Assembly: GCA_016934635.1 (NCBI GenBank)
Contig: JAFGSK010000017.1
Span: forward strand, 4,987 to 68,986
Reading direction: 5' to 3'
From: a candidate division WOR-3 bacterium
GTDB taxonomy: Bacteria; Hydrothermota; Tepidihabitantia; B3-TA06
DNA: 64,000 nucleotides
Both the position numbers and the translations under genes were made by a program. Positions 1 to 62,911 of the stretch are shown one piece after another (within the stretch, counting starts at the first letter, position 1; each line of letters begins with the position of its first letter). The notes beneath the pieces were generated by a model. It was not told where the DNA came from. It saw only the letters and a list, made by a program, of their open reading frames with translations, and did no database searches.

Positions 1-919
1 GGAGGATGAGATTTCAAAAAGGATAGTTGGACAGGACCATGCCATTGCAGCGGTCGCCCGCGCCATTCGCCGTTCAAGGGCAGGGGTAAAGGATCCTCGC
101 CGGCCCATAGGTTCTTTCATCTTCCTCGGACCCACCGGGGTCGGAAAAACAGAGTTGGCCAGGACCCTGGCGCGTTTCCTGTTCGAGGACGAAAACGCAC
201 TCATAAGGGTGGATATGTCCGAATACATGGAGAAGTTCAACGTCTCCAGGCTCATCGGTGCGCCGCCCGGCTACGTAGGTTACGATGAGGGCGGGCAGCT
301 CACCGAGCGCGTTCGCCGCAGGCCTTACGCGGTGGTTCTTTTTGACGAGATTGAAAAGGCTCACCCGGAGGTTTTCAACGTACTTCTACAGATAATGGAA
401 GACGGACAGGTCACCGATTCTTTAGGCCGGAAGGTGGATTTCAAGAACACCGTAATCATCATGACCTCCAACGTGGGCACATCTGACATTTCTCATTCCG
501 GACCGATGGGGTTTTCGCGCGAGGGTGTCGATGAGAATTACTCAAGGATGAAGGATCGACTGATGGAGGAGATCAAACGCGTGTTCAGACCGGAGTTCCT
601 GAACCGGGTTGACGAAACCATCGTGTTCAAAGCCCTGAATCGCGAATCGATGCACATGATAGTCGAGATACTTATTGCAGAAATCGAAGATCGCCTCAGG
701 GACAAATCCGTAACCCTCAAGCTCGACGACGAGAGCAGGGAGTTGCTGGTGGAGCAGGGATTCGACCCTCAGTACGGTGCAAGACCCTTAAAACGCGCGT
801 TACGCCGGTTACTTGAGGATCCGTTGGCCGAGGAGATTTTGCGCAAGAAACTGGATACTGGACGCCAGATCAGCATCAGACGCTCAGGTCAGAAGCTTGT
901 CTTCGAGGCCGCCAAATGA
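1..919 (+). CDS. ClpC/ClpB-family AAA+ chaperone ATPase, C-terminal (D2 domain) portion; 5' end lies outside the window (reading frame starts at nt 2)
   Basis: Frame-2 translation gives ...[51 protein letters not shown]... (sensor/Walker A of the second AAA module) and a ClpB_D2-small C-terminal region; stop at 917-919. Confidence 0.85.
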   Translation, partial: EDEISKRIVGQDHAIAAVARAIRRSRAGVKDPRRPIGSFIFLGPTGVGKTELARTLARFLFEDENALIRVDMSEYMEKFNVSRLIGAPPGYVGYDEGGQLTERVRRRPYAVVLFDEIEKAHPEVFNVLLQIMEDGQVTDSLGRKVDFKNTVIIMTSNVGTSDISHSGPMGFSREGVDENYSRMKDRLMEEIKRVFRPEFLNRVDETIVFKALNRESMHMIVEILIAEIEDRLRDKSVTLKLDDESRELLVEQGFDPQYGARPLKRALRRLLEDPLAEEILRKKLDTGRQISIRRSGQKLVFEAAK

Positions 920-3156
920 GTTTCTTCCTTTTAGTCTCATTAATAGGGTTGCCGATAGGCCAGGTACGTGTGATTCCTTCCGGGGCTGATGCCAATCTGA
1001 TTACCTCCATATCAGGCCTATATACAGGATTGGAATACACCGATGAGGAGGCCTCAGGAGCCATCCGCAAGCTTTACACCTCGGGTCACTTCGATTACGT
1101 TGCAGTGGATACATCACTTGTTGATTCAAAGGTAAACGTTACCATTCAGGTCGAGCAGCCACCCAAGCTTGCCAGGATCGAGATAGTAGGCAACAGAAAG
1201 TTGAAGACCAACGCCCTGGAAAAGGCGATTGCCGCCGATTCAGGAGCCGTACTCACCGCACGTCAGCTCTTTCGTTGGGAACACGCGATTCGGGAGCAGT
1301 ACAAGAAGAAAAGATACCTCCTTGCCGAAGTAGATACACGCCTTATCGAATCAGACCGGGAAGGATACGCAGTCGCCCGAATCCAGATCCAGGAAGGGAG
1401 CGGGGTCAGGATTCAAAGTATCACGTTCAAAGGCAACCAGAACGTTACCGAGGGAAAACTCAAACGCAGGATGAAGAACCGTTCGAAGTGGTTCATCTTG
1501 CGATCGGGAAGATTTGACGATAAGAAATTCAAGCAGGACATAGATAAGATAGAAGCCTACTATCACGACCGTGGCTGGATTGACGCAAAGGTTACTGAAA
1601 CCGAACTCCCTATAGACTCGGCTGGTAACCTCGACATCGTGATACACGTCGACGAAGGCAAACGTTTCTATACCGGGAGGTTCGTCTTCGAAGGGATTGA
1701 AGCGTTGCCTGAATCGACCCTTACAAAGGCCGTGATACTCGAAGAAAATGAACCCTACAGCCTGATGGATGCCCAGTTATCGGTCGCCCGGATACAGAGG
1801 GCTTACTGGGAAGAAGGCTATATCTACGCTGCTGTGGATCCGCTGGAGAATCTCAGGCGAGATACGGTGGACGTAACTTACCGCATCCGGGAGGGTATTC
1901 CCGCTCACGTCAGGCGTGTATTGATCGAAGGGAACAGTACGGTTAGGGAGAACGTGATTCGCCGTGAGGTGATGCTTCTGCCGGGTTCGGTATTCAAGTA
2001 CTCCCAGGTGGAACGCAGCCAACGAAACATTTACTTCCTGGGTCTTTTTGATGACGTGAGGTTTTACCCCGAGGAGATCGAGGATTCAGAGGGCGAGATT
2101 GATCTGGTCTTCCAGGTCGAAGAAAAGATGTCGGGTCAGTTCGGTGCAGGCATTACCTACAGCGCGGAATCCGGCATTATGGGTAATGTTGAATTGAAGC
2201 ACCCCAACGTGTTCGGCGGCGCTCAAAGCGGTCACATACGCTTCGAGAAAGGCGCTAAAGTCACCCAGGCTTCCATCGGATTGACCGAACCATGGCTTTT
2301 CGATACCCCAACGTCTCTCGGAGGAGAACTCTACTATTACACCCGACGCTATTCCCTAAGCGGCGGTGTTGCCTATGACAAGCAATCCCTGGGTGGTGTG
2401 ATTAGCGCATCTCGAGCCCTGCCTTTGGATTACAGCAGGGGAGGCGTATCGTTCAAAGTGGAAAGGGTAAATCTTGGTGAAGTTGATGGGTATACGTTTC
2501 CAACCGACATCTCCACCGAGGATTACCCCAAGAATACCATCTCTACCACATTTAATCTGACCCGGGATGCCCGTGATTACTGGATTAATCCTGCATCAGG
2601 CTCCTACTTCAAAGAGCAGATAGAATTCGCCGGCGGCCCTCTGGGAGGCGATGTAGACTTTATCAAGGAGATATTGGATATACATACCAACTTCCCCCTT
2701 GCCTGGGAACGTAAGGTGGTTCTGACCCAGAAGATGAAGTTCGGCTACATTACCAGTTACGAGCCAGGAGACGAGGTTCCACTTTATGAGCGGTTTTATC
2801 CGGGCGGTATATCCTACGACGGCATGGTCCGCGGCTACGATAATTTCTCCCTGGGTACGACTTCAGGCTCTTCCTACATCGGCGGTAGGGCGATGACCGT
2901 CTTTAATACCGAACTCAAGGTTAAGGTCACGCCCCAGTTGGCGCTATTGGGTTTCTTCGACGCGGGCAACGCGTGGGAGGACCTGGGCAGGGTGAATCTC
3001 TCCGAGTTAAAGAAGGGAATAGGCGTAGGCATTAGATTCGAGATTCCACTCATGGGTGTGATGGGCTTTGACGCCGGATTCGGCCTCGATTATCCCAAGG
3101 GATCAAGGTTAGCGGATATATTCCGTCCCCACTTCCAGATATCCCAGACCTTCTAG
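916..3156 (+). CDS. bamA: Outer membrane protein assembly factor BamA (Omp85 family)
   Basis: 746 aa, repeated POTRA-like segments, C-terminal beta-barrel ending ...FGLDYPKGSRLADIFRPHFQISQTF (aromatic C-terminus); ATG overlaps the clp stop (ATGA). Confidence 0.85.
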   Translation: MSFFLLVSLIGLPIGQVRVIPSGADANLITSISGLYTGLEYTDEEASGAIRKLYTSGHFDYVAVDTSLVDSKVNVTIQVEQPPKLARIEIVGNRKLKTNALEKAIAADSGAVLTARQLFRWEHAIREQYKKKRYLLAEVDTRLIESDREGYAVARIQIQEGSGVRIQSITFKGNQNVTEGKLKRRMKNRSKWFILRSGRFDDKKFKQDIDKIEAYYHDRGWIDAKVTETELPIDSAGNLDIVIHVDEGKRFYTGRFVFEGIEALPESTLTKAVILEENEPYSLMDAQLSVARIQRAYWEEGYIYAAVDPLENLRRDTVDVTYRIREGIPAHVRRVLIEGNSTVRENVIRREVMLLPGSVFKYSQVERSQRNIYFLGLFDDVRFYPEEIEDSEGEIDLVFQVEEKMSGQFGAGITYSAESGIMGNVELKHPNVFGGAQSGHIRFEKGAKVTQASIGLTEPWLFDTPTSLGGELYYYTRRYSLSGGVAYDKQSLGGVISASRALPLDYSRGGVSFKVERVNLGEVDGYTFPTDISTEDYPKNTISTTFNLTRDARDYWINPASGSYFKEQIEFAGGPLGGDVDFIKEILDIHTNFPLAWERKVVLTQKMKFGYITSYEPGDEVPLYERFYPGGISYDGMVRGYDNFSLGTTSGSSYIGGRAMTVFNTELKVKVTPQLALLGFFDAGNAWEDLGRVNLSELKKGIGVGIRFEIPLMGVMGFDAGFGLDYPKGSRLADIFRPHFQISQTF

Positions 3157-3210
3157 CGATGTTCGAGAGGTGTCGTGCTGCACTTGAATTGATATATATC
3201 GGATGGGTTG

Positions 3211-4026
3211 ATGGTTAAAAAGGTTCTGGTGGTTGATAAGGAGGTAAAGCTGAGGGAGATACTCCAAAAAGTCCTCTCAGAACGCGGTTATGCAGTTGAG
3301 CTCGCCCAAAACGGTAAGGAAGCCTTAAAGATGATCCCGGATTTCAGCCCACACCTTGTGATAGCCGAGGTAGCGCTTCCGGAGATGGACGGATTCGAGC
3401 TTTGCCGCCGGATACGCGAGGACAAACGCTTCGGGGCGTTGCGGTTCATATTCCTCACGGCCAAGGATGCAAGAGAGGATGAGATAGAAGGCCTGCGCCT
3501 TGGGGCTGACGACTATATCACCAAGCCCTTTGACGTTGACAGGCTCCTTGCCCGCGTGGAAACCAGACTGCGCTGGCTCGATGCGGCAAAGGATATGGTT
3601 TGCGGAGAGGTGCGCAGCGAATGTATCGAAGGCGGACTGGCAGGTCGCAATCTCATTGACGTTCTTCAGATACTCGAGATGAGTCAGAAAAAGGGCAGGC
3701 TCACCGTAACCAACGAGTCGAAGAAAGTAATATTGACGGTGGATCAGGGCAGCATACTCTCGGCCAGCTTCGGAAACAAACGCGGCAAGTTCGCTGTATT
3801 CGAGGCTCTTTCGTGGGTCGACGGGCGGTTCAGGTTCGAGCCGGTTTCAGAGGCTTCAGAAGTCAAGGGAGAGGATAATCTCTCCATCACAGGTATACTC
3901 CTTGAGTGGGCGCGCATCGCGGATGAAATAGGCCAAGGCCCTATATTTCCTACCGAGAGGGCCGCGGAAACCAACGGCGTCGCAGCCGACTTCATACGCT
4001 ACGTAAAGGAGCGCGAGGGAAAGTAG
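3211..4026 (+). CDS. Response regulator: CheY-like receiver domain plus C-terminal DUF4388-like domain
   Basis: KVLVVDKE...D...LVIAEVALPEMDGFELCRRIR...FIFLTAKD...DDYITKPFD receiver motifs; C-terminal LIDVLQILEMSQKKGRLTV... resembles DUF4388. Confidence 0.7.
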   Translation: MVKKVLVVDKEVKLREILQKVLSERGYAVELAQNGKEALKMIPDFSPHLVIAEVALPEMDGFELCRRIREDKRFGALRFIFLTAKDAREDEIEGLRLGADDYITKPFDVDRLLARVETRLRWLDAAKDMVCGEVRSECIEGGLAGRNLIDVLQILEMSQKKGRLTVTNESKKVILTVDQGSILSASFGNKRGKFAVFEALSWVDGRFRFEPVSEASEVKGEDNLSITGILLEWARIADEIGQGPIFPTERAAETNGVAADFIRYVKEREGK

Positions 4027-4045
4027 AGACAAGTTATTTCGCGGC

Positions 4046-4074
4046 TTGACATTTCCCTGATTGCCTCTTATCAT
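4046..4074 (+). promoter_or_regulatory. sigma70-like promoter (TTGACA-N17-TATCAT) ending 5 nt before the methyltransferase ATG, suggesting a leaderless or near-leaderless transcript
   Basis: TTGACA 4046-4051, TATCAT 4069-4074, ATG at 4080. Confidence 0.4.
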
Positions 4075-4079
4075 TAACC

Positions 4080-5084
4080 ATGCCGAAAAAGAAGAAAAAG
4101 GTAGAGGAAACACTTCGGACGGGCGTAATCTATTGCGGCGACAACATTGAGGTAATGGAGAGGCTTCCTTCGGAGTCCATTGATTTAATCTACGTTGACC
4201 CCCCCTTTTTTTCCAACAGGCAGCATGAGGTTATTTGGGGTAACGGCGCTGAGTTGCGTTCCTTCGCAGACCGTTGGATGGGCGGCATCAAGCATTACGT
4301 CAACTGGATGCGCGAGCGACTCATGGAGATGCACAGACTCTTAAAGCCTGCAGGTTCAATCTACGTCCACCTCGACTGGCGCGCCGTACATTACATTAAG
4401 TGTGAGATGGACAGGATATTCGGCATTAAAAACTTCCGCAACGAGATAATATGGCATTACTCAGGCTGGAACAAGATACTTAAGGATCATTTTGAGAACA
4501 GAAACGACTCCATACTCTTTTATGGCAAGGGTGATGAACAGGTATTCTTCGGTTATACTATACCCTGGGACAGCGAGGATGAGTATGTAAAGATACGCAA
4601 GCAGAAGGTGAGGACTGATGTCGATGGCCGTAAGTACGTTCTTTCAGATGCTGGCGGAGGTAAACGCATCAAGCGTTACCTTGCGGACGCAATGCGCGAA
4701 GGCAGGCCTGTGGACAATGTTTGGGATATAGATAAGATCAACAACTCATCCAAGGAATTTCTCGGCTACCCTACCCAAAAGCCTGAGGCACTGCTCGAAC
4801 GCATAATTAAGGCTTCATCCAACGAAGGAGATATAGTCGCCGATTTTTTCTGCGGGTGCGGAACCACACTTGCGGTTGCGGAAAGATTAAGTCGTCGGTG
4901 GCTCGGTTGCGACGTTTCACCCACGGCTTGTAAGCTGGTTCAACGGCGAGTATCCAAGCTTAATAAAGGGAGCCGGAAGTTTGAGATTATCGGGATGCCG
5001 GTTACCATTGATGAACTCAAGAAGATGGAGCCTTTCGAGTTCCAGAACCACATCATCGTTGATCTGTTGCACGGCACTTGCTAA
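4080..5084 (+). CDS. DNA methyltransferase, N4-cytosine/N6-adenine amino-methyltransferase family (beta class: motif IV DPPF precedes motif I)
   Basis: ...IDLIYVDPPFFSN... (motif IV) near the N-terminus and ...GDIVADFFCGCGTTLAVAERLSRRWLGCDVS (FxGxG, motif I) near the C-terminus; tail ...FEFQNHIIVDLLHGTC* begins a nuclease-like domain. Confidence 0.8.
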   Translation: MPKKKKKVEETLRTGVIYCGDNIEVMERLPSESIDLIYVDPPFFSNRQHEVIWGNGAELRSFADRWMGGIKHYVNWMRERLMEMHRLLKPAGSIYVHLDWRAVHYIKCEMDRIFGIKNFRNEIIWHYSGWNKILKDHFENRNDSILFYGKGDEQVFFGYTIPWDSEDEYVKIRKQKVRTDVDGRKYVLSDAGGGKRIKRYLADAMREGRPVDNVWDIDKINNSSKEFLGYPTQKPEALLERIIKASSNEGDIVADFFCGCGTTLAVAERLSRRWLGCDVSPTACKLVQRRVSKLNKGSRKFEIIGMPVTIDELKKMEPFEFQNHIIVDLLHGTC

Positions 5085-5363
5085 CGGGTTAAATCCGGCG
5101 ATAGAGGTGTTGACGGACACGATTTCGGACACAATCCTGTGGAGATTAAGCAGCAGGAGGGGGTGGGCAGACCGGTTGTTCAGAAGTTCCATTCGGCAGT
5201 CCTTGCCGAGCGACGAACCAAAGGAATCATCGTAGCGTTCTCCTTCTCGAAGACCGCGCATGAGGAGGTTGCCCGCATCAAGCTGGAAGAGGGGGTAGAG
5301 ATTGAACTGCGCACCGTCCAGGAGTTAATCGCCGACCACTACCGGCGAATGGGCCGCAAGTAA
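5085..5363 (+). pseudogene. Mrr-like (PD-(D/E)XK) restriction-endonuclease catalytic domain, in the same frame as and immediately downstream of the methyltransferase, separated from it by a single TAA (5082-5084)
   Basis: In-frame translation after the TAA: RVKSGDRGVDGHDFGHNPVEIKQQEGVGRPVVQKFHSAVLAERRTKGIIVAFSFSKTAHEEVARIKLEEGVEIELRTVQELIADHY. It contains a G-D-x-G-V-D-G motif and a VQK motif typical of Mrr_cat/restriction-endonuclease domains. The only internal ATG (5139) lies downstream of the catalytic Asp region. Confidence 0.55.
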
Positions 5364-5424
5364 GAAAAAGCTAAGGTAGGCCTGGGGTGTGGGTTTATTC
5401 CCTTATGCTGTTGGATAAGCCGCG

Positions 5425-5452
5425 TTGACATTTGAGCGCTTTACCCTAAAAT
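5425..5452 (+). promoter_or_regulatory. sigma70-like promoter TTGACA-N16-TAAAAT abutting the cysS start codon (predicted leaderless cysS mRNA)
   Basis: TTGACA 5425-5430; TAAAAT 5447-5452; cysS ATG at 5458. Confidence 0.4.
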
Positions 5453-5457
5453 ACACC

Positions 5458-6822
5458 ATGCAGGTCGAGATATACGATACTTTGTCCAGACAGCGCAAGC
5501 CTCTGGAACCAGCCGACAACACCGTCCGAATCTACCACTGCGGGATGACCGTGCAGGCGCGTCCGCACGTCGGGCACCTGCGCGGCTACATCGTTATGGA
5601 CGCGTTCAGGCGGTTCCTGCGCTTCAAGGGCTACGACGTCACGCTCGTTCAAAACATCACCGACATCGACGACAAGGTCATCGAGAAATCACGCGCCGAA
5701 GGTATAGACTGGCGCATGCTTGCCGAGCGTAATACGAAGGAGCTTCTCGACGTCACCTCGGCTCTCAACGTCGAGCCGCCTACCGTCATGCCGCGGGCGA
5801 CCCAGCACATCGAGGAGATAGTAGACCTCGTGTCCAGGATAGTCGATCGAGGCCATGCTTACGAGGTTTCGGGCGACGTTTACTTCGACGTGCGTTCCTA
5901 CCCTAAATACGGGAAACTCTCAGGCAAGAACATTGACGATTTGATGGAAGGCGTACGCAAGGATTTGGCGGACAATAAGCGTGACCCTTTGGACTTCGCG
6001 CTCTGGAAGGCGGCCAAGGAAGGAGAGCCATACTGGTTTTCTCCCTGGGGCAAGGGCCGACCCGGCTGGCACATCGAGTGCTCGGCAATGTCTACCCTTT
6101 ATCTCGGTTCCGGCTTCGATATACACGCCGGAGGAGAGGATCTCGTTTTCCCCCATCACGAGAACGAGATAGCCCAGTACGAGGCCGGCACGGGAAAGCC
6201 TTTTGCAAAAGCCTGGATGCACGTCGAGATGCTCAACCTGCAAGGCGAGAAGATGAGTAAGTCGACAGGCCACGTAGTCACGGCAAGGGACGTGCTCGAT
6301 CTCTACGATCCGAACGTACTCAGGCTTTTTACCCTGCGCGTCCACTACCGCGCCCAGACCGAGTACACGATGGAAGGCATCCAAGAGGCCCGCTCCGCCT
6401 GGGAACGCATTGAAAACTTCCTCGAAGCTGCCCGGTCCGCCTTACCTGACCAATCGGTTGCCTCCTCATACCCGGAGTTCGAGCAAGCGCTCGCAGATGA
6501 CCTGAATACACCTAAGGCCTTGGGTCTTGTATTCGATCTTGTGCGCGAGGGTAACGAGGCATTAGCAGCCGGAAACACTGGAATACTAACTGACGTATCT
6601 GCCAGGCTCAATCTCGCCTTAGGAATTCTGGGATTCAAACCTTCGGATAAGCGAGGTTCGAGCGAGGAGTTGGACAAGGTTCTCGCAATCGTTGCCGATT
6701 TCCGGGCCGAGCTTCGCTCCGCCAAGGCCTTTGACTGGGCGGACAAGCTGCGCGAAAACCTGCAGAAATCGGGTTTAATAATCGAAGACACCAAAGAAGG
6801 AACAAGGATAAGGTTCAAATGA
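5458..6822 (+). CDS. cysS: Cysteine--tRNA ligase
   Basis: MQVEIYDTLSRQ... N-terminus typical of CysS; HIGH-type motif (HVGH) and KMSKS motif present; C-terminal anticodon-binding DALR-like region. Confidence 0.9.
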   Translation: MQVEIYDTLSRQRKPLEPADNTVRIYHCGMTVQARPHVGHLRGYIVMDAFRRFLRFKGYDVTLVQNITDIDDKVIEKSRAEGIDWRMLAERNTKELLDVTSALNVEPPTVMPRATQHIEEIVDLVSRIVDRGHAYEVSGDVYFDVRSYPKYGKLSGKNIDDLMEGVRKDLADNKRDPLDFALWKAAKEGEPYWFSPWGKGRPGWHIECSAMSTLYLGSGFDIHAGGEDLVFPHHENEIAQYEAGTGKPFAKAWMHVEMLNLQGEKMSKSTGHVVTARDVLDLYDPNVLRLFTLRVHYRAQTEYTMEGIQEARSAWERIENFLEAARSALPDQSVASSYPEFEQALADDLNTPKALGLVFDLVREGNEALAAGNTGILTDVSARLNLALGILGFKPSDKRGSSEELDKVLAIVADFRAELRSAKAFDWADKLRENLQKSGLIIEDTKEGTRIRFK

Positions 6823-9219: not shown

Positions 9220-9726
9220 TTTGTTCTTCTTTGTGCGCTTTGCGTTCTTTGTGGTTAGTCCCTGTCCTGCGGATTCGGATTGGGTGGAGGACGGGTTCTC
9301 CAACCCGTCTATAACCTCGTCAATTTCAAGTCCTCAACGTCAAGCCACCCCACACCTTCGCTGCGCGAAGCTACCCCGACCGAAAGAGTTAGAAGCTCGC
9401 TCCGCGAACTTCAACATGCCTGCTGCCTGCCGTCAGCCGGAAGCCAACGGAGTAAGCCCTCATGCATACAGCCGATCCTTCACCCGGCTGCCCATCATCA
9501 GCTTCAAGCAATTTTGAATTTTGCAATTTGCATTTTTAATTTGAAATTGTGACGAAGTCGCGCCGTGTCCCACTTTTGGGGTGTTTTTGTCAGGCTTTTG
9601 TGGCGCTTTTGTCCTGCTTTTGTCATACTTTTTTTGACTCCAAGCACTAAAGCCTGACGCGAAACTGGGGGTTTACAAGAAAGGCGTGGAAGCTTGACCC
9701 CACGCCCCTATTGTATACAATTCAGG

Positions 9727-10698
9727 ATGGGTAATACTGCACACGATGCAGGAAAGACTGCGGTCATTGCCCTGGGGGGAAACGCGCTCATGCGAAAAGA
9801 TGTCAAGTTCGCATCGTTCGAAGAGCAGCGTCGCGTTGTCGAGCAGAGTGCGCGCCAGATTGCCGAGATCATGGATCAAGGCTGGCGCGTGGCAATCACT
9901 CACGGCAACGGCCCCCAGGTAGGCAATCTTCTCCTCATCTCCCACATGGCTCACGAAGAGAACCGTGAGATGCCAGAGATTCCCCTGGACGCGGCAAACG
10001 CAAATACCCAAGGTTCGCTGGGTTACCTGATAGCTCAGGCAGTCAGGAACGCCTCCACGGATAACGGCGAGCGCCGGGAGATAGCCGCGGTGGTTACCCA
10101 GGTTGTGGTTGATCCGAGGGACCCCGCGTTCTACAACCCGACCAAGTTCGTGGGTCCGGCATACGGAATTGAGGAAGCGAATGAACTATCTATCCGATTG
10201 GGATGGAAGATGAAGGAAGACAGAGGCAGGGGTTGGCGCAGGGTTGTCGCATCACCCAAGCCGCTTGACATCGTCGAAATTGCAACTATAAATAAACTAA
10301 TGAATCAAGGGGTATCCGTAGTTACCGTGGGAGGCGGAGGCATACCGGTAGTTAGGGAAGGAAAGCACCTAAAAGGGATTGCCGCGGTAATAGACAAGGA
10401 TAGGGCATCTGCGCTGCTTGCAACGAACCTGGGGGTTCAGCTCCTGGCGATGATAACCCAGGTCTCCAACGTGTATCTTGATTTCAGTAAGCCTTTGCAG
10501 CGGACGGTGGAAAAGATGCGCGTTGACGAGGCTAGAGGTTATCTCGATAAAGGTCAGTTTCCCCAGGGCAGCATGGGGCCGAAGATAGAGGCGGCTATTA
10601 GTTTTTTAAAGAATGGGGGCAGCGAAGTGCTGATAACCAGCCCGGAGAATATCACCGAAGGTTTTCGAGGCAGGAAGGGAACGAGGATTGTATCGTGA
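9727..10698 (+). CDS. arcC: Carbamate kinase
   Basis: MGNTAHDAGKTAVIALGGNALM...GWRVAITHGNGPQVGNLLL... canonical carbamate kinase N-terminus; the ORF extends upstream to 9694, but the conserved start is at 9727. Confidence 0.85.
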   Translation: MGNTAHDAGKTAVIALGGNALMRKDVKFASFEEQRRVVEQSARQIAEIMDQGWRVAITHGNGPQVGNLLLISHMAHEENREMPEIPLDAANANTQGSLGYLIAQAVRNASTDNGERREIAAVVTQVVVDPRDPAFYNPTKFVGPAYGIEEANELSIRLGWKMKEDRGRGWRRVVASPKPLDIVEIATINKLMNQGVSVVTVGGGGIPVVREGKHLKGIAAVIDKDRASALLATNLGVQLLAMITQVSNVYLDFSKPLQRTVEKMRVDEARGYLDKGQFPQGSMGPKIEAAISFLKNGGSEVLITSPENITEGFRGRKGTRIVS

Positions 10699-11912
10699 AC
10701 TGCTTGCTTGTTATCGGATTGATTGGCAAACTGCTAATCCCGATGGACCTTGCCCAGACCAATCACCTCAAGGCATACGGTGTCGCTTATCACGCCCTCG
10801 AGCAGGGCGAAAAGGTTGAATGGTTGCTAAACTATAGGGGTGGTTCGTTCCTTATGCCCTCGTCGAAGAAGATCCTTGAGGAATGCCTGCTTGCAGGAAT
10901 CAAGGTTGAAGAGATCGACGTAGGTCAGGAGGCCGCGATTCGCGAGGTTATCGAGGAATCCAACATGAACGCGGTAATCCTCGAGAAGCCGCCTGAGATT
11001 GCGGTATACGTCCCTCCAACTGCCGACCCTTGGGATGATGCCGTACGGTTGGCGCTTGATTATGCCGAGATTCCTTATGAGGCGCTCTGGGATCCCGAGG
11101 TACTTGCAGGCAAGCTATCCGACTACGATTGGGTTCACCTTCACCATGAGGATTTCACCGGCCAGTACGGCAAGTTCTACTACAACTTCCGGACGGCTGA
11201 CTGGTATCAGGAACAGGTCAAGCTTAACGAAAAAACTGCAGGCAAGTTGGGATTCGCGACTGTGCCCGATCTCAAGCTTGCGGTAGCAAAAGAGATAAAG
11301 AAATACGTACTCGAGGGCGGATTCCTGTTCGCGATGTGTTCCGCATCCGACACCTACGATATTGCCCTGGCAGCTGACGGTACCGATATAGTCGACCAGG
11401 TTCTGGACGGAACCCCGATTGACAAGAACATCACACTCGACTATTCACGCTGCTTTGCTTTCACAGATTTCACCCTGGAAACCAATCCCTATGTCTACGA
11501 GCATTCGGACATCGACGTGGGTGAGTCTGCGGTCCTTAGAGGTGAGAATACGGTATTCGCGCTCTTTGACTTCTCGGCCAAGTTCGATCCGGTTCCGTGC
11601 ATGCTCGTTCAGGATCACACCGCCCTGGTCCCGGAGTTCCTGGGGCAGAACACCGGATTCAACCGGAATTTTGTAAAGTCGGACGTACTTATCATGGGAG
11701 AGGTAAAGGGAACCGAAGAGGTGAAATACATCCACGGGAACCGGGGCGAGGGTACGTTTACCTTTCTCGGTGGGCATGACCCCGAGGATTACGCGCACAG
11801 GATAGGAGATCCTCCGACCGATCTGGAGGTGTTCAGGAATTCACCTGGATACAGGTTGATCTTGAACAACGTACTGTTCCCGGCAGCGGAGAAGAAACCT
11901 TTGAAGACTTGA
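10695..11912 (+). CDS. Hypothetical protein (405 aa); start overlaps the arcC stop, so probably co-transcribed; possibly a glutamine-amidotransferase-like or DUF-type fold, not recognised with confidence
   Basis: Long ORF with coding-like composition; start overlaps the arcC stop; no motif I can name reliably. Confidence 0.5.
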   Translation: MNCLLVIGLIGKLLIPMDLAQTNHLKAYGVAYHALEQGEKVEWLLNYRGGSFLMPSSKKILEECLLAGIKVEEIDVGQEAAIREVIEESNMNAVILEKPPEIAVYVPPTADPWDDAVRLALDYAEIPYEALWDPEVLAGKLSDYDWVHLHHEDFTGQYGKFYYNFRTADWYQEQVKLNEKTAGKLGFATVPDLKLAVAKEIKKYVLEGGFLFAMCSASDTYDIALAADGTDIVDQVLDGTPIDKNITLDYSRCFAFTDFTLETNPYVYEHSDIDVGESAVLRGENTVFALFDFSAKFDPVPCMLVQDHTALVPEFLGQNTGFNRNFVKSDVLIMGEVKGTEEVKYIHGNRGEGTFTFLGGHDPEDYAHRIGDPPTDLEVFRNSPGYRLILNNVLFPAAEKKPLKT

Positions 11913-18386: not shown

Positions 18387-20738
18387 ATGATCCAATGTAG
18401 TCTTCAGACCAAAGTTAGGGGCAAAATAAGGGGATTGAGAGTTTGTGTTGCAATTGCCCTAACAAGTAGTCTATTTACACTTCAGGCATATGCCCAAGTT
18501 TGGGAACCTTACAAGCAGGTTACCGACGACACGCACCTTAACTACCTGGCCAACAACAATGCATATGCTACCGCAGTAGATGGTTTCAACATACATGTGG
18601 TATGGTGGAATGATGACCAGGACTCAATCTGGTATTCTCGGAGCGAAGATAATGGAGAAACATGGACACAAGAAATACCGATTGGTGAAGGAACTCATCC
18701 TGCAATAGTTTCCGAAGGAAGCACCTTACGTGTCGTATGGACTGCTGAAGGCCCAACTCACGACATGGATATATTCTACAGCCATTCCACAAACAACGGA
18801 GGATCATGGGTATCACCAACGAATATCTCCGAAACATCATCTGATTCGTATAATCCATCTATTGCTTGTTTGGGCAATAGCGTTCATGTCGTATGGAATG
18901 AAGCAGGAACTGATATACTTCACAATAGATCAACAAACAATGGCTTAACATGGGGGGACTCGAAGAATATCGCAACTGGTTTGGTAGGAAATCCTGCAAT
19001 TTCAATCTTAGGTACTGCATCTCTCCTCGTCCATGTATTTATCGTCTGGGAAGACAGCTTAAGTGGCACTGCTCAAATAAATCACAGACATTCCTCTAAT
19101 AACGGTACCGATTGGGGTACGGTTAACAAAGTAAACTCTGGAAGTGCCGACGCCTACTCCCCTTCGATTGCCTCTACAACGCAAGGGGTGCAAGTAGCCT
19201 GGATCGATAATCGTGACGGCAATCCTTCTATTTTCCACAATTTCTCTTTGAACCAGGGAGCTACATGGAATCCGGTCGATACGAGGATCGTTGACTTGGG
19301 TGTTATCGATTCAGCCTACCAGCCGTCAGTATCCGCTCATGAAAGTGATGTTCATGTGACCTGGATTGATACTCGTAATCCCTTTACCGCAATATACTAC
19401 GATCATTCTGAGGACAATGGTTTCACCTGGATGGAAGACAAACCTGTAACTGACAGCCTAAGAAATCCACACAATCCCTCGATCGCCTCTTATGACTCTG
19501 ATATCCACACGGTATGGTATGATGATTCCGCAACCTATCAGAATATCTTCTACGCACACGCAGGAGAGGTTCAACCAGACAACCTTATCAGAAACAGATT
19601 CGATGTTGGTTATATCGGCGATGATGTTTACAATCGGGATGGAACCGGCCAGACAAGTCAACAGCTTGTTGACGGAGGTGATACGGCCGTCTATTATATC
19701 ATGATTCAGAACGACGGCGATATCCCAGACGAAATCATCGTTACAGGGGATAGTTCGGTTTCTGGTTGGAAAGTAGCCTACTATAATTCCTTAACCGGTG
19801 GAACCGATATTACTGATGAAGTAACGGAAAGTGGTTGGCTTACCGGCGAATTATCGGAGGATGATAATATAAGTATACGAGCAGAGATCATCCCTGATGA
19901 TACTGTGCCTTCAGGTTCATTCTTCAGCATTCTCATAATTTCTGCATCAAGCAACGATACGACATATGTAGACGCGGTTAGGGCAAATGCAGTCGTCTCC
20001 AACTATCAACCGGACAATCATATCAAGAACTCGTACGAGTCAGTCTATATCGGTGACAATATTTATAACGTTACCGGTGCAAACCAGACCGAAGAGCAGT
20101 CGATTGGTATAGGAGATACGGCAATCTATCATGTAATGATTCAAAATGACGGCCCTGACGAGGATTCATTCAAGGTCACAGCAACCCCTACTGGCACGGG
20201 ATGGGACGTAAAATACTACGACGGGATTCAAAGTGAATACGATATTACAGCTCAAGTAACGACGACTGGCTGGTTCAGTCCATTATTAGGGGTTTCTTCA
20301 ATCACACGGTTTCGAGTCGAAGTAACCCCTATCACTGCAGATTCCGGTGATTCACATGAAATCATGATAACCTCAACTTCAACCAAAGACACCTTCAAAC
20401 ACGACGTTGTTAAAGCAATAACAGTAATCGGATCAGGAGTAACGGAAGAACTATCCACAGGGGAATTTACACTGAACACGGAGACCTTCTCTGAATATTC
20501 CCGCTACCCTGTGATCTTTTATGAACTCCCTGAAGCAACCTGGACTGATATCGTTATATACGATGTAACCGGTACGGTAGTTAGGAACCTTGTCAATACC
20601 CGTAAAGATGCGGGAAGCTACCGCATAACCTGGGATGGACGTAACAATCAAGGATTAGAGCTGCCTTCAGGTCTCTACTTCTGTATGTTAAAAACCCCGA
20701 AACGCATCCTGGATGGGAAATTACTGTTATTCAAGTAG
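18387..20738 (+). CDS. Paralog of the preceding BNR/Asp-box repeat T9SS cargo protein (same architecture)
   Basis: Asp-boxes SEDNGETWT, STNNGGSWV, STNNGLTWG, SSNNGTDWG, SLNQGATWN, SEDNGFTWM; the same duplicated module; CTD ...SGLYFCMLKTPKRILDGKLLLFK; 5'UTR similar to that of 15838. Confidence 0.7.
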   Translation: MIQCSLQTKVRGKIRGLRVCVAIALTSSLFTLQAYAQVWEPYKQVTDDTHLNYLANNNAYATAVDGFNIHVVWWNDDQDSIWYSRSEDNGETWTQEIPIGEGTHPAIVSEGSTLRVVWTAEGPTHDMDIFYSHSTNNGGSWVSPTNISETSSDSYNPSIACLGNSVHVVWNEAGTDILHNRSTNNGLTWGDSKNIATGLVGNPAISILGTASLLVHVFIVWEDSLSGTAQINHRHSSNNGTDWGTVNKVNSGSADAYSPSIASTTQGVQVAWIDNRDGNPSIFHNFSLNQGATWNPVDTRIVDLGVIDSAYQPSVSAHESDVHVTWIDTRNPFTAIYYDHSEDNGFTWMEDKPVTDSLRNPHNPSIASYDSDIHTVWYDDSATYQNIFYAHAGEVQPDNLIRNRFDVGYIGDDVYNRDGTGQTSQQLVDGGDTAVYYIMIQNDGDIPDEIIVTGDSSVSGWKVAYYNSLTGGTDITDEVTESGWLTGELSEDDNISIRAEIIPDDTVPSGSFFSILIISASSNDTTYVDAVRANAVVSNYQPDNHIKNSYESVYIGDNIYNVTGANQTEEQSIGIGDTAIYHVMIQNDGPDEDSFKVTATPTGTGWDVKYYDGIQSEYDITAQVTTTGWFSPLLGVSSITRFRVEVTPITADSGDSHEIMITSTSTKDTFKHDVVKAITVIGSGVTEELSTGEFTLNTETFSEYSRYPVIFYELPEATWTDIVIYDVTGTVVRNLVNTRKDAGSYRITWDGRNNQGLELPSGLYFCMLKTPKRILDGKLLLFK

Positions 20739-21441: not shown

Positions 21442-21675
21442 GGCCTCTGTAGCCGACATAGGTGGGAACGGGATTGATGACTAACTTCCTGGTGTTAGGA
21501 TGTAAAGATGTTTAGCACTGGGATAGTACGTAGTCACAAACCGTGATAGTAATAATGGAAGTTGGCGGGAATTCATCCCTGCTGCATTTGACTCTCGTAC
21601 AAGGGGAGTATCCTGCGTGGTTGAGTTAATTCCAGGAACACTTGACATGCGTATCTTAATTCCTAAGATTGTAGA

Positions 21676-23055
21676 ATGATTGTTGAAGAGAAATCCACCG
21701 CCCCATTGGGCATACTTATACAGAACGGAACCTTCACCCCGTCCCAGATTGTTCGGGAATTGAACCGTTACATCATCGGACAGGATGCGGCCAAGCGCAC
21801 GGTTGCAATTGCCCTGCGCAACCGCTGGCGTCGCCAGAGGGTTAAGGGACCACTCAAGGATGAGATCTATCCCAACAATATCCTTATGATAGGTCCTACT
21901 GGAGTGGGTAAAACCGAGATCGCCAGACGATTGGCTCAACTCGCTGAGGCTCCCTTCGTTAAGATCGAGGCCTCGAAATTCACAGAGGTCGGTTATGTCG
22001 GCCGGGATGTGGAATCCATGATAAGGGACCTGGTGGAGATTGCAGTAAAGATGGTCCGTGAAGAGAAGGCCCTTAAGATGCAGGCCAACGCGGACGAACT
22101 TGCCAGACAGCGTATCGTGGACCTCTTGCTTCCTTCCATGCCTCCCCCTAAAGAAGGAGAGGTCGACACTCGTTCCGAAACTCGGGCCAAACTCAGAAGG
22201 ATGCTCGACGCCGGAAGGTTGGACGATCGATTGGTTGAAATTCAAACTTCGCAAGAACCTGCAGGGCTGTTTGATCTTTTCAGAATGAGCGGTATGGACG
22301 ACGTTAACATCGAGCTTCAGGAGATGCTTCAGAATGCCATGCCCCGCAAGCGCAAGAGCCACAAGGTTACCGTAAAGGAAGCCTTAAGGATACTGACCCA
22401 GGAGGAAGCCGCCAAACTGGTCGACATGGAAGAGGTTATATCCCAGGCAAAGGAACGCGCCGAGAACTCAGGGATCATATTCCTCGACGAGATCGATAAG
22501 ATTGCCTCGACCGAAGGCCCTCACCACGGCCCTGATGTCTCGAGGGAAGGTGTACAGCGAGACCTATTACCCGTTGTTGAAGGTTCAAACATCTCGACAA
22601 AGTACGGGCTTATCAAAACCGATCACATCCTCTTCATCGCCGCAGGGGCGTTCCATAAAGCCAAGCCTTCCGATCTAATCCCTGAGTTGCAGGGCCGCTT
22701 TCCCCTTCGAGTGGAACTCTCATCACTTACAGGAGAGGACTTCGAGCGAATCCTGGTTGAGCCGGAGACCGCACTCATCAAACAATACCAGGCCCTGATT
22801 GAAACCGAGAACGCCAAGCTGACCTTCACCAAGGACGCGATTGCAGCGATTGCCGAGGTTGCGGTCGAGGTCAACGACCGGGCCGAAAATATCGGCGCCC
22901 GCAGGCTGCACACGGTGATGACCACCCTGCTTGAAGACTACCTTTTTAATCTGCCCGAGGCCGGGACCCGCAGTATAAAGATCACCGGCAAGGACGTTCG
23001 CGAAAAGCTCGATTCGATCGTGGCCGACGAGGACCTGAGCCAGTACATACTGTAA
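21676..23055 (+). CDS. hslU: ATP-dependent protease ATPase subunit HslU
   Basis: ...[33 protein letters not shown]...[19 protein letters not shown]...[26 protein letters not shown]...; start may be internal (TTG ~21709); no hslV adjacent. Confidence 0.9.
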
Positions 23056-33703: not shown

Positions 33704-34279
33704 ATGAAGGACATTGCCACCCACGATAAGGGAATAACACCGGTTCGTATTAAATCCTGGCTCGAGGAGTGTTACAAACAATCGGACATCGAAAAGATAC
33801 ACAAGAAACTATCGCCCGAGGCTTACAAAATGCTAACGTCGCCTGTCGGAAATAATTGGTACCCGGTTGAACTTACACGAGAGGTATACAATACAGTAAC
33901 CGACGTACTCGGGAAGCGCAATCCCAGGGTGCTGATCGATTATGGTTATTATTCCGCCCAACACAGCATCACCGGCGTGCTCAGATTCCTGATGAAACTG
34001 GTCGATACGAACAAGATAGCTAAGCGTATGGGTGCTTTTTGGAAATTTTACCATAACGGTGGAAAAACAACTGCAGGCGAAGTAGTTGAGGAGGGAGGAC
34101 GTAAAAAAAGAACTATATCTTACTACGGTTATGACGCAGGCAGATACGGCTGTCTGGTTTTCGAAGGATACGCTCGAGCATTAACAGAGAAGGCGGGAGG
34201 CAAAAACGTCACTATTGTAAAAAAGAAATGTATTTACAAGGGAGATGATTGTTGTTCCTGGGAAGTAAGCTGGGAGTAG
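33704..34279 (+). CDS. V4R-like array paralog 4
   Basis: MKDIATHDKGITPVRIKSWLEECY...GVLRFLMKLVDTNKIAKRMGAFWKFYHNGG...GCLVFEGYARAL...KKKCIYKGDDCCSWEVSWE. Confidence 0.7.
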   Translation: MKDIATHDKGITPVRIKSWLEECYKQSDIEKIHKKLSPEAYKMLTSPVGNNWYPVELTREVYNTVTDVLGKRNPRVLIDYGYYSAQHSITGVLRFLMKLVDTNKIAKRMGAFWKFYHNGGKTTAGEVVEEGGRKKRTISYYGYDAGRYGCLVFEGYARALTEKAGGKNVTIVKKKCIYKGDDCCSWEVSWE

Positions 34280-34306: not shown

Positions 34307-34879
34307 ATGACATATGACCGCGGCTCAACCGCTATACTAACGAGAGATTGGTTGAAAGAACGCTTTGGAGAGGATGGTCTAAAAAAGGTCGCCGGAAAGC
34401 TTAAAGCTGACGCCTATGACATGCTCCTGAACACTCATTCAAATGCATGGTATCCTACGCCACTTATCAAGGAAGTATACAAGGTTATCTCCGATGAGTA
34501 TGCTGGACGGTATCCGGATGTAATGTACGATTGCGGCCGCTACTGTGCTCAAAAATCCGCAACAGGGATATTGAGGTTCCTGATGAAGAATATCTCGATC
34601 GAGAATCTTTTCAAGAGGACCAAATCCTTCTGGAAGCATTTTAACAAAGGTGGAGGTGCAGAAATCCTGAAGCTGGAAGACGAAGAAGGTGAAAAGAAAA
34701 TGAAGTTTATTATTCACGAGTATGACGTTGGTGTACCAGGTTGTCAAACCATGCACGGCTTTATTGAAGGGATTGCTGGGATGGCGGATTCAAAGACAAA
34801 AGAGGTTCACGTGGAAAAGAAGGAGTGTTTGCATAATGGAGATGATTTTTGTGCATGGGAGATCAACTGGAAGGTCTAA
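34307..34879 (+). CDS. V4R-like array paralog 5 (start at the MTYDRG Met with GGAGG RBS; the ORF extends to 34289)
   Basis: MTYDRGSTAILTRDWLKERFGEDGL...GILRFLMKNISIENLFKRTKSFWKHFNKGG...GCQTMHGFIEGI...EKKECLHNGDDFCAWEINWKV. Confidence 0.7.
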   Translation: MTYDRGSTAILTRDWLKERFGEDGLKKVAGKLKADAYDMLLNTHSNAWYPTPLIKEVYKVISDEYAGRYPDVMYDCGRYCAQKSATGILRFLMKNISIENLFKRTKSFWKHFNKGGGAEILKLEDEEGEKKMKFIIHEYDVGVPGCQTMHGFIEGIAGMADSKTKEVHVEKKECLHNGDDFCAWEINWKV

Positions 34880-34897
34880 TGAAAGTTAGCTCCTACC

Positions 34898-62350: not shown

Positions 62351-62419
62351 CTGAAAAGTAGCTATTTTTTTTAGATTCAACCCGTTGACTTTCCCGGCTG
62401 ACTCTGCATAATTCAGTTA

Positions 62420-62911
62420 ATGTACAAGAATATCCCCAAGCGAGTATTGTTATTCCTGATAGGTTTTACGTACTGTGGATGCTGCGGTTACTCCACACGT
62501 TCGCTTCTTCCCACATATATAAAAACCATCAATATCGCCGAGGTTAAGAACCGGACATTACACCCTCTTCTAGCCGAGGATCTCAACGACCGGCTGGTGA
62601 CGGCATTTACACGTGACGGACGCCTTCGCGTTTCGCCCGACCCCTCAGCCGACCTTGTTCTAATCATAGAAATCACCGGGTACAAACGATCTGCGGCAGT
62701 ATATGACGATTCTCACAACGTCTCGGAGTGGAGGTACGAACTTCGCTACAGCGGCAATTGCACCGACCAGTTAAAAAACAATGTACTGTGGGAAGGCACA
62801 CAGCAGGTATTCGAGGTAATCGACGCGGATGTGGATGAAGAGGATGGCATTGAACAACTTTTAAAGAGTGCCGCCGATTTGATAGTGCAGAACATTCTGG
62901 TTGCATGGTAG
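62420..62911 (+). CDS. Putative lipoprotein, possibly LptE-like (LPS assembly), low confidence
   Basis: N-terminal hydrophobic segment with a Cys cluster (LIGFTYCGCCGYS); size and position between fmt and an rRNA methyltransferase; no firm motif. Confidence 0.4.
   Translation: MYKNIPKRVLLFLIGFTYCGCCGYSTRSLLPTYIKTINIAEVKNRTLHPLLAEDLNDRLVTAFTRDGRLRVSPDPSADLVLIIEITGYKRSAAVYDDSHNVSEWRYELRYSGNCTDQLKNNVLWEGTQQVFEVIDADVDEEDGIEQLLKSAADLIVQNILVAW

Follow-up and report, generated by a model that had tools for sequence, protein, structure and literature searches.

A premature TAA codon in a methyltransferase–nuclease fusion gene of a candidate division WOR-3 bacterium

A stop codon inside a nuclease domain

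In a 64-kb stretch of a candidate division WOR-3 metagenome-assembled genome (MAG), called the window below, an open reading frame (ORF) for a DNA methyltransferase (MTase) ends in TAA, and the same frame then stays open across a segment that resembles an Mrr-type nuclease. Does this locus hold two genes or one, and if one, is the stop that divides it real? An earlier interpretation, made from the DNA letters without database searches (the sequence-only reading), had proposed a fused enzyme whose nuclease half was removed by one nonsense mutation, and had named stop-codon read-through and sequencing error as alternatives. Translation reproduced both parts where that reading had placed them, an ORF at 4080-5084 and an in-frame continuation to 5363. 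Beyond the TAA at 5082-5084, the frame of ATG 4080 runs for 92 further sense codons to a second TAA at 5361-5363, a position that coincides with the C-terminus of the homologues. In GenBank, the two pieces are already public as separate coding sequences (CDSs), a 334-aa 'hypothetical protein' (MBN2378714.1) and a 74-aa 'restriction endonuclease' (MBN2378715.1), followed by the adjoining CysS, 'cysteine--tRNA ligase' (MBN2378716.1). All three proteins are assigned to a candidate division WOR-3 MAG, where they lie on a 104,522-bp contig, and the record names are silent on a one-gene origin of the first two.

The evidence below leads us to conclude, with a probability of about 0.75, that this is one gene, not two, in which a Ser codon of a fusion family was changed to TAA just after the first nuclease helix, very recently, leaving an MTase-only product of 334 residues. 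The coordinates of the relevant features are collected in Table 1.

Table 1. Features of the interrupted fusion gene (window coordinates).
Feature	Coordinates	Strand	Basis or remark
Promoter-like site, TTGACA-17 nt-TATCAT	4046..4074	+	11/12 matches
Truncated CDS, 334 aa + premature TAA	4080..5084	+	PF01555 match, ORF translation
Motif IV DPPF, aa 40-43, amino-methyltransferase catalytic loop	4197..4208	+	
Approximate target-recognition region, aa ~125-225	4452..4754	+	between motifs IV and I
Motif I FFCGCGT, aa 256-262, S-adenosylmethionine (AdoMet)-binding FxGxG loop	4845..4865	+	
N-terminal part of Mrr_cat kept in truncated product, helix alpha1	5019..5081	+	Mrr_cat match from aa 314
E320, GAG	5037-5039	+	inside helix alpha1, within truncated product
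Premature TAA	5082..5084	+	sense codon in homologues; same base in Logan contig L001
Stranded nuclease-domain remainder, 92 codons + natural TAA	5085..5363	+	Mrr_cat E=3.3e-7
Catalytic D345, GAC	5112-5114	+	stranded remainder
E355-x-K357, GAG and AAG	5142-5144, 5148-5150	+	stranded remainder
GTG-initiated 74-aa ORF	5139..5363	+	GenBank and Logan gene callers

For the upstream part, the match to PF01555 (N6_N4_Mtase) has E=6.7e-52 and 177 bits (cut-off 26.7) and covers profile positions 1-220 of 221. Its motif order, DPPF followed by FFCGCGT with the recognition region in between, is that of the beta class, and the match and motif positions agree with the earlier assignment to a beta-class N4C/N6A MTase with DPPF before FxGxG; the DPPF sequence is compatible with N6A and N4C alike and does not discriminate between them. 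Among 120 homologues, the D, P, P and F of motif IV are each kept in 118-119 and G259 and G261 of motif I in all 120; over motifs IV and I together, conservation is 115-120/120. The nearest solved structures by sequence are those of CcrM, M.RsrI and M.MboIIA, which resemble the window gene in their strong Pfam match and in the order of motif IV (DPPF), recognition region and motif I (FxGxG), but differ in having no Mrr-like nuclease domain. The C-terminal domain of CcrM shows no sequence match to that of the window gene, and the CcrM alignment stops at query residue 304. NCBIfam yielded no more than sub-threshold methyltransferase matches, and none for the tail; PADLOC assigned the N-terminal part to Type II MTase models and related the tail weakly (E=4.5e-4) to a Type IV restriction endonuclease (REase) model. 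The 334-aa product retains all methyltransferase motifs and the recognition region.

The downstream segment taken alone (5085-5360) matches PF04471 (Mrr_cat) with 30.9 bits against a cut-off of 21 (E=3.3e-7). In the joined translation this match covers aa 314-413 (profile positions 2-108 of 115) and spans the stop, which therefore lies within the nuclease domain, directly past its first helix (PFEFQNHIIVDLLHGTC). A search of solved-structure sequences with the nuclease-domain profile gave no significant match, and a structure model was then used for domain comparison. The modeled C-terminal domain has a restriction-endonuclease-like alpha/beta fold with a helix at model residues 13-24; the stop corresponds to residue 30, which lies between helix 1 and the beta-sheet core. 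Structural neighbours of the model (scores in parentheses) include AF1548 / 1y88 (10.5), the BspD6I small subunit (10.1), FokI (10.1), N.BspD6I (9.6), AspBHI (9.5), NucS (9.3), LlaBIII (9.2) and MspJI (8.8); most of these are cleavage modules linked to a distinct domain for recognition or sensing. AF1548 was grouped with Mrr_cat in a survey of PD-(D/E)XK proteins (PMC3424549). Failure to match nuclease hidden Markov models had been set in advance as the finding that would count against a nuclease here; what we found is a match above the curated cut-off, with which the structure model agrees.

The putative catalytic residues can be followed across the same 120 homologues. The column of E320 holds E in 110 and D in 7, D345 of the G-[IV]-D-G motif is kept in 119, column 355 holds Q in 108 and E in 11, and K357 is kept in 118. 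We take this E...D...(Q/E)xK pattern to be the arrangement described for Mrr. Conservation of catalytic residues in 110-119 of the 120 members suggests that the nuclease domain of the family is cleavage-competent. In the window, E320, D345, E355 and K357 are all encoded in frame, but the stop divides them and no single product has all four. The 334-aa product lacks the entire beta-sheet core as well as the catalytic D...(E/Q)xK residues.

Origin and age of the stop codon

Proteins in which the two halves are contiguous are abundant. A search with the joined translation scored 8000 candidates, and all 8000 fell at E<=1e-10, i.e. at least 8000 contiguous MTase-Mrr_cat proteins. The fused architecture that the sequence-only reading had surmised, and whose absence from homologues it had named as a refutation, thus occurs in thousands of them. 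The best full-length match to the joined sequence has E=1.8e-269 with 90% identity and 100% coverage. Top among the matches listed are P0001 (90% identity), P0002 and P0003 (85% each), single proteins of 426-429 aa that align with 100% coverage and have precomputed matches to both Pfam domains. Scanning GTDB representative genomes added at least 597 confirmed loci, those listed coming from Chloroflexota, Actinomycetota, Planctomycetota, Acidobacteriota, Verrucomicrobiota, Bathyarchaeia, ANME-1, Nitrososphaerales and others. We examined 55 full-length loci and found a single intact ORF in 53. At one of the others, a high-GC locus (L038), the ORF is obscured by longer ORFs on the opposite strand. 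The other, at 5986-7252 of L055 (Aminicenantes MAG chromosome OY969586.1), consists of ORFs of 271 aa and 142 aa in different frames, that is, a frameshift. This is the sole other disrupted copy among the 55 genome loci, and it could be either genuine decay or an assembly indel.

What do these relatives carry where the window gene has TAA? The stop column is Ser in 14/14 aligned homologues (HGTC-S-R.KS.D.G[IV]DG); in the 120 homologues it is Ser in 58, Asn in 41 and Thr in 11, with no stop in any. At the DNA level, the three closest sequences encode this Ser by TCT, TCC and TCT. TAA is one step from TCA, and two steps from the TCT or TCC of the relatives, the nearest intact ones of which show 83% and 78% DNA identity. 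Over 1280 nt, the window gene aligns to the 90% relative without a gap, and the single substitution is therefore the only lesion. TAA clearly functions as a terminator in this genome: it ends 22 of the 50 long ORFs in the window, which makes it the commonest stop, and it is the natural terminator of the fusion gene as well. An altered genetic code or a suppressor tRNA can be rejected on this basis; the window's only tRNAs are Gln(UUG) and Ala(UGC), and no suppressor tRNA was found in the 64 kb.

To gauge the age of the lesion, we compared constraint on its two sides. Ratios of nonsynonymous to synonymous substitution rates (dN/dS) are 0.044 for the tail and 0.067 for the MTase part versus L002, and 0.041 and 0.067 (the latter for aa 1-120) versus L091. 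Residue changes unique to the window, relative to the three closest relatives, number 3/92 in the tail and 13/334 upstream, and all catalytic and highly conserved positions of the tail are retained. Relaxed constraint downstream of the lesion is not seen (tail dN/dS 0.04), and for this reason the nonsense mutation appears, when measured by sequence divergence, to be very recent, or else not fixed in the population. The proposal of a fused enzyme that lost its nuclease half through one nonsense mutation is thus supported, with a sense codon in the homologues, a TAA that is a genuine stop and a tail that is still constrained. We see here a fusion gene of the restriction-modification (R-M) type that has very recently undergone ordinary pseudogenisation or that carries a nonsense polymorphism.

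The most serious alternative is that the TAA arose as an error in sequencing or consensus calling, or marks just one allele where the population is mixed, and that an intact 427-aa fusion is made by the organism or by the larger part of its population. An intact gene would have just such a tail, indistinguishable from that of a gene under full purifying selection, and the source sequence is a MAG. However, an independent Logan assembly of run SRR13394437 (contig L001) is 100% identical to the window over 5844 bp (window 334-6177), TAA included. A pure assembler artefact is unlikely given that this second assembly agrees, although the two TAA-bearing assemblies possibly derive from one sequencing run. 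With two assemblers arriving at the identical base, it also counts against an error that the change is a substitution rather than a homopolymer indel, and that random short-read errors do not reach consensus. Nor does the assembly appear to be generally poor. Six other long window ORFs leave their frame open for at least 60 codons past the stop; the two of these that we translated proved to be ordinary adjacent genes (tandem paralogues in one case, rpsF then ssb in the other). Split genes elsewhere, as a sign of poor assembly, were accordingly rejected, with none among the same-frame neighbour ORFs checked. A near-identical strain, which would allow a direct comparison, was sought in GTDB representatives and JGI metagenomes with a wobble-degenerate 62-nt pattern across the stop; none was found, and the window itself was also unrecovered. 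Overall, we consider an error or mixed allele unlikely.

A second alternative is a working two-subunit system, with a separate methylase and a small nuclease subunit initiated at GTG 5139. The GenBank and Logan callers both annotate the 74-aa 'restriction endonuclease' CDS, and split heterodimeric nucleases do exist, the BspD6I small subunit being among the structural neighbours named above. The 74-aa ORF, however, is without E320, D345, the first helix and the first strands, and would be an incomplete nuclease. No strong promoter was found upstream of GTG 5139, and no Shine-Dalgarno-like sequence was seen before it on reading the bases. Moreover, the only other split copy in the 55 loci (L055) reads, by its ORF coordinates, as a frameshift rather than as two subunits. 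The sequence-only reading had rightly put this internal start, the only one in frame past the stop, after the codon for the catalytic Asp (GAC 5112-5114), but had taken it for an ATG. A two-subunit system seems to us very improbable. Finally, read-through or recoding of the stop, to yield the full-length methylase-nuclease at a low, regulated level, is scarcely credible: it draws its sole support from the intact and strongly constrained 92 downstream codons, and against it stand the use of TAA as commonest window terminator and as the gene's own natural terminator, the fact that no bacterial stop is less leaky than UAA, the sense codon that 120/120 relatives have in this column and the lack of a suppressor tRNA in the window, all of which leave the earlier suggestion of read-through unsupported.

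The fusion family and its relation to known systems

If the window gene is a truncated fusion, as we favor, the Ser codon just past the first nuclease helix has become TAA, translation ends at residue 334, and the truncated product would still methylate DNA as a methylase-only enzyme. We expect such activity because beta-class cores of 260-320 aa, among them M.MboIIA and M.RsrI, need no domain of this kind in order to work. The 92 downstream codons would probably go untranslated, or be expressed at most as the catalytically incomplete 74-aa fragment. In the intact family, the MTase would supply sequence recognition in a compact single-chain R-M enzyme, and dimerisation, which is usual for beta-class MTases and FokI-like domains, would place two cleavage modules side by side at unmodified sites. 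Loss of the nuclease half, leaving a harmless methylase, would be the usual decay route of such genes, and the organism probably keeps the methylase without its nuclease. R-M decay, as claimed by the sequence-only reading, presumes that the family nuclease is active, which the conserved catalytic residues suggest. The chromosome may, as that reading also supposed, carry methylation at a specific motif.

Several observations weigh against this account. First, the C-terminal domain of CcrM is needed for its activity, and loss of the C-terminus here could therefore cripple methylation too. Second, we found no family member with demonstrated nuclease activity in the literature searched. Third, distant phage and plasmid relatives carry D...SxK, and PF22722 (NACHT-associated inactive REase 1) fits them better than Mrr_cat does; given this match to an inactive-REase model, the domain may serve in DNA binding rather than cutting in part of the wider family. 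Fourth, the Logan contig may come from the MAG's own reads, and a population with a coexisting intact allele is compatible with the data.

These distant relatives have an MTase followed by a C-terminal REase-like domain and are ~30% identical; examples are Streptomyces phage OzzyJ gp49 (L089, 2983-4617) and a gene on a plasmid of Rhizobium sp. Pop5 (L090, 3992-5737). The phage relatives belong to Likavirus phages of Streptomyces. The Rhizobium plasmid is conjugative, and its copy adjoins dGTPase, WYL-domain and RecB-like nuclease genes.

Judged by sequence, the family to which the locus belongs comprises solitary proteins of ~400-520 aa, each with a beta-class MTase, its own recognition region, a short linker and a C-terminal Mrr/FokI-like PD-(D/E)XK domain. 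Searching with the nuclease-domain profile alone returned 1578 clusters at 50% identity among 1.84 billion representatives. Eight of these matches were inspected, and all eight either start at or just before the linker or carry upstream methyltransferase sequence; short matches of this kind look like fragments of the fusion, not free-standing nucleases. One family protein, P0169 (461 aa), has a ~200-aa extension past the nuclease domain with an HEVGH metallopeptidase-like motif resembling ImmA/IrrE. A literature search found no characterised MTase-Mrr_cat fusion member.

The recognition region (aa ~125-225) is only 21-26% identical in amino acid sequence between the window gene and P0124/L091, while the flanking core and tail are 80-100% identical. 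Evidently, these WOR-3 genes, close in other respects, have exchanged the recognition cassette, as R-M enzymes that switch specificity do. For P0124 (L091, 7001-8272), identity to the window gene is 70-87% over core aa 1-120 and 87-100% over the nuclease domain.

How does this architecture compare with those already described? In AF1548 (PDB 1y88), FokI, R.BspD6I, LlaBIII, MspJI and AspBHI, the cleavage domain has as its partner a winged-helix, SRA-like, helicase or dedicated recognition domain. In the window family, a domain of the Mrr/FokI type sits on the C-terminus of a methyltransferase instead. A parallel is offered by the Type IIG/IIC enzymes (MmeI, BpuSI, Eco57I), which likewise hold a PD-(D/E)XK nuclease, an amino-methyltransferase and recognition in one polypeptide, and are likewise encoded by a solitary gene without a partner. 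The recognition region, swapped between close relatives in the family described here, is a further point of similarity. Type IIG/IIC enzymes are ~900-1000 aa long, with an N-terminal nuclease, a gamma-class methyltransferase and a separate recognition domain, whereas members of the intact family are ~425 aa long and beta-class, with a C-terminal nuclease for which cleavage is predicted from conserved residues. Nuclease and MTase share one polypeptide in the homologues but not in the window, where the TAA at 5082-5084 stands between them. The locus would thus work like a Type IIG/IIC enzyme minus its nuclease, without being a canonical member of that group. A Type IV enzyme of the Mrr type was considered and rejected, as there is no Mrr_N match and the N-terminal 300 residues form a complete methyltransferase. 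The locus closely resembles decayed R-M genes that leave an orphan methyltransferase, in that one mutation kills the nuclease, the MTase is intact and the surroundings are housekeeping genes. Nothing notable differs except that the stranded part is still pristine, the event being so recent.

For the WOR-3 genome, the result mainly concerns annotation: the two GenBank CDSs are parts of a single methylase-nuclease gene that a fresh nonsense mutation has divided. Of wider interest than this locus is the very common compact fusion family with its conserved catalytic residues. We tentatively suggest, at somewhat less than even odds, that its intact members are widespread, uncharacterised miniature single-chain R-M enzymes of ~425 aa, spread over many bacterial and archaeal phyla, in which a dimeric MTase guides a non-specific nuclease and the recognition cassette is swapped, and of which the window carries a natural nuclease-null allele. 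If active, such a protein would be a single-chain R-M enzyme of unusually small size whose recognition cassette can be exchanged, and the window allele would provide a ready-made nuclease-null control.

Genomic context and expression signals

The window gene lies among ordinary neighbours, with ClpC (partial), BamA and a response regulator with DUF4388 upstream, and CysS, DeoC and an AlkZ-like glycosylase downstream. No recurrent neighbour, such as a separate REase or a controller, was found as a conserved partner in the 55 genome loci. The close relatives L002, L003 and L091 have unrelated genes around them, which in L091 are housekeeping genes. A search for insertion scars or flanking repeats around the gene returned short matches of chance size only. 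There is also no compositional sign of recent transfer, with a GC content of 50.2% and a GC content at third codon positions (GC3) of 60.3%, like neighbouring genes. The fusion gene is self-contained, long-resident and solitary.

The strong promoter-like site in front of the gene (Table 1) has a -10 hexamer that ends 5 nt short of ATG 4080, a spacing that a leaderless mRNA would have. CysS has its own promoter-like site at 5425-5452. Similar leaderless geometry is seen at about 9 other genes in the window, which suggests that leaderless transcripts are frequent in this WOR-3 genome. Overall, the window contains 26 strong sigma-70-like matches, ~10 of which have the ATG of a long ORF 0-7 nt past the -10 hexamer. 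Sites of this leaderless type lie on the + strand at 4046-4080, 5425-5460, 9694-9729, 19669-19703, 21642-21678 and 62385-62422, and on the - strand at 55512-55478, 31530-31495, 14915-14881 and 13357-13328. Several mechanically assigned ORF starts are too far upstream, e.g. those of cysS (TTG 5425) and carbamate kinase (TTG 9694).

Two further observations concern other parts of the window. A 405-aa ORF at 10695-11912 (+) shares 4 nt with the end of the carbamate kinase gene and has no Pfam match at E<=1e-5. At 33704-34279 and ~34310-34880 (+), tandem paralogues of ~190 aa lie in the same frame with one stop and a short spacer between them, each with the conserved motif C..GDD.C.WE at its end.

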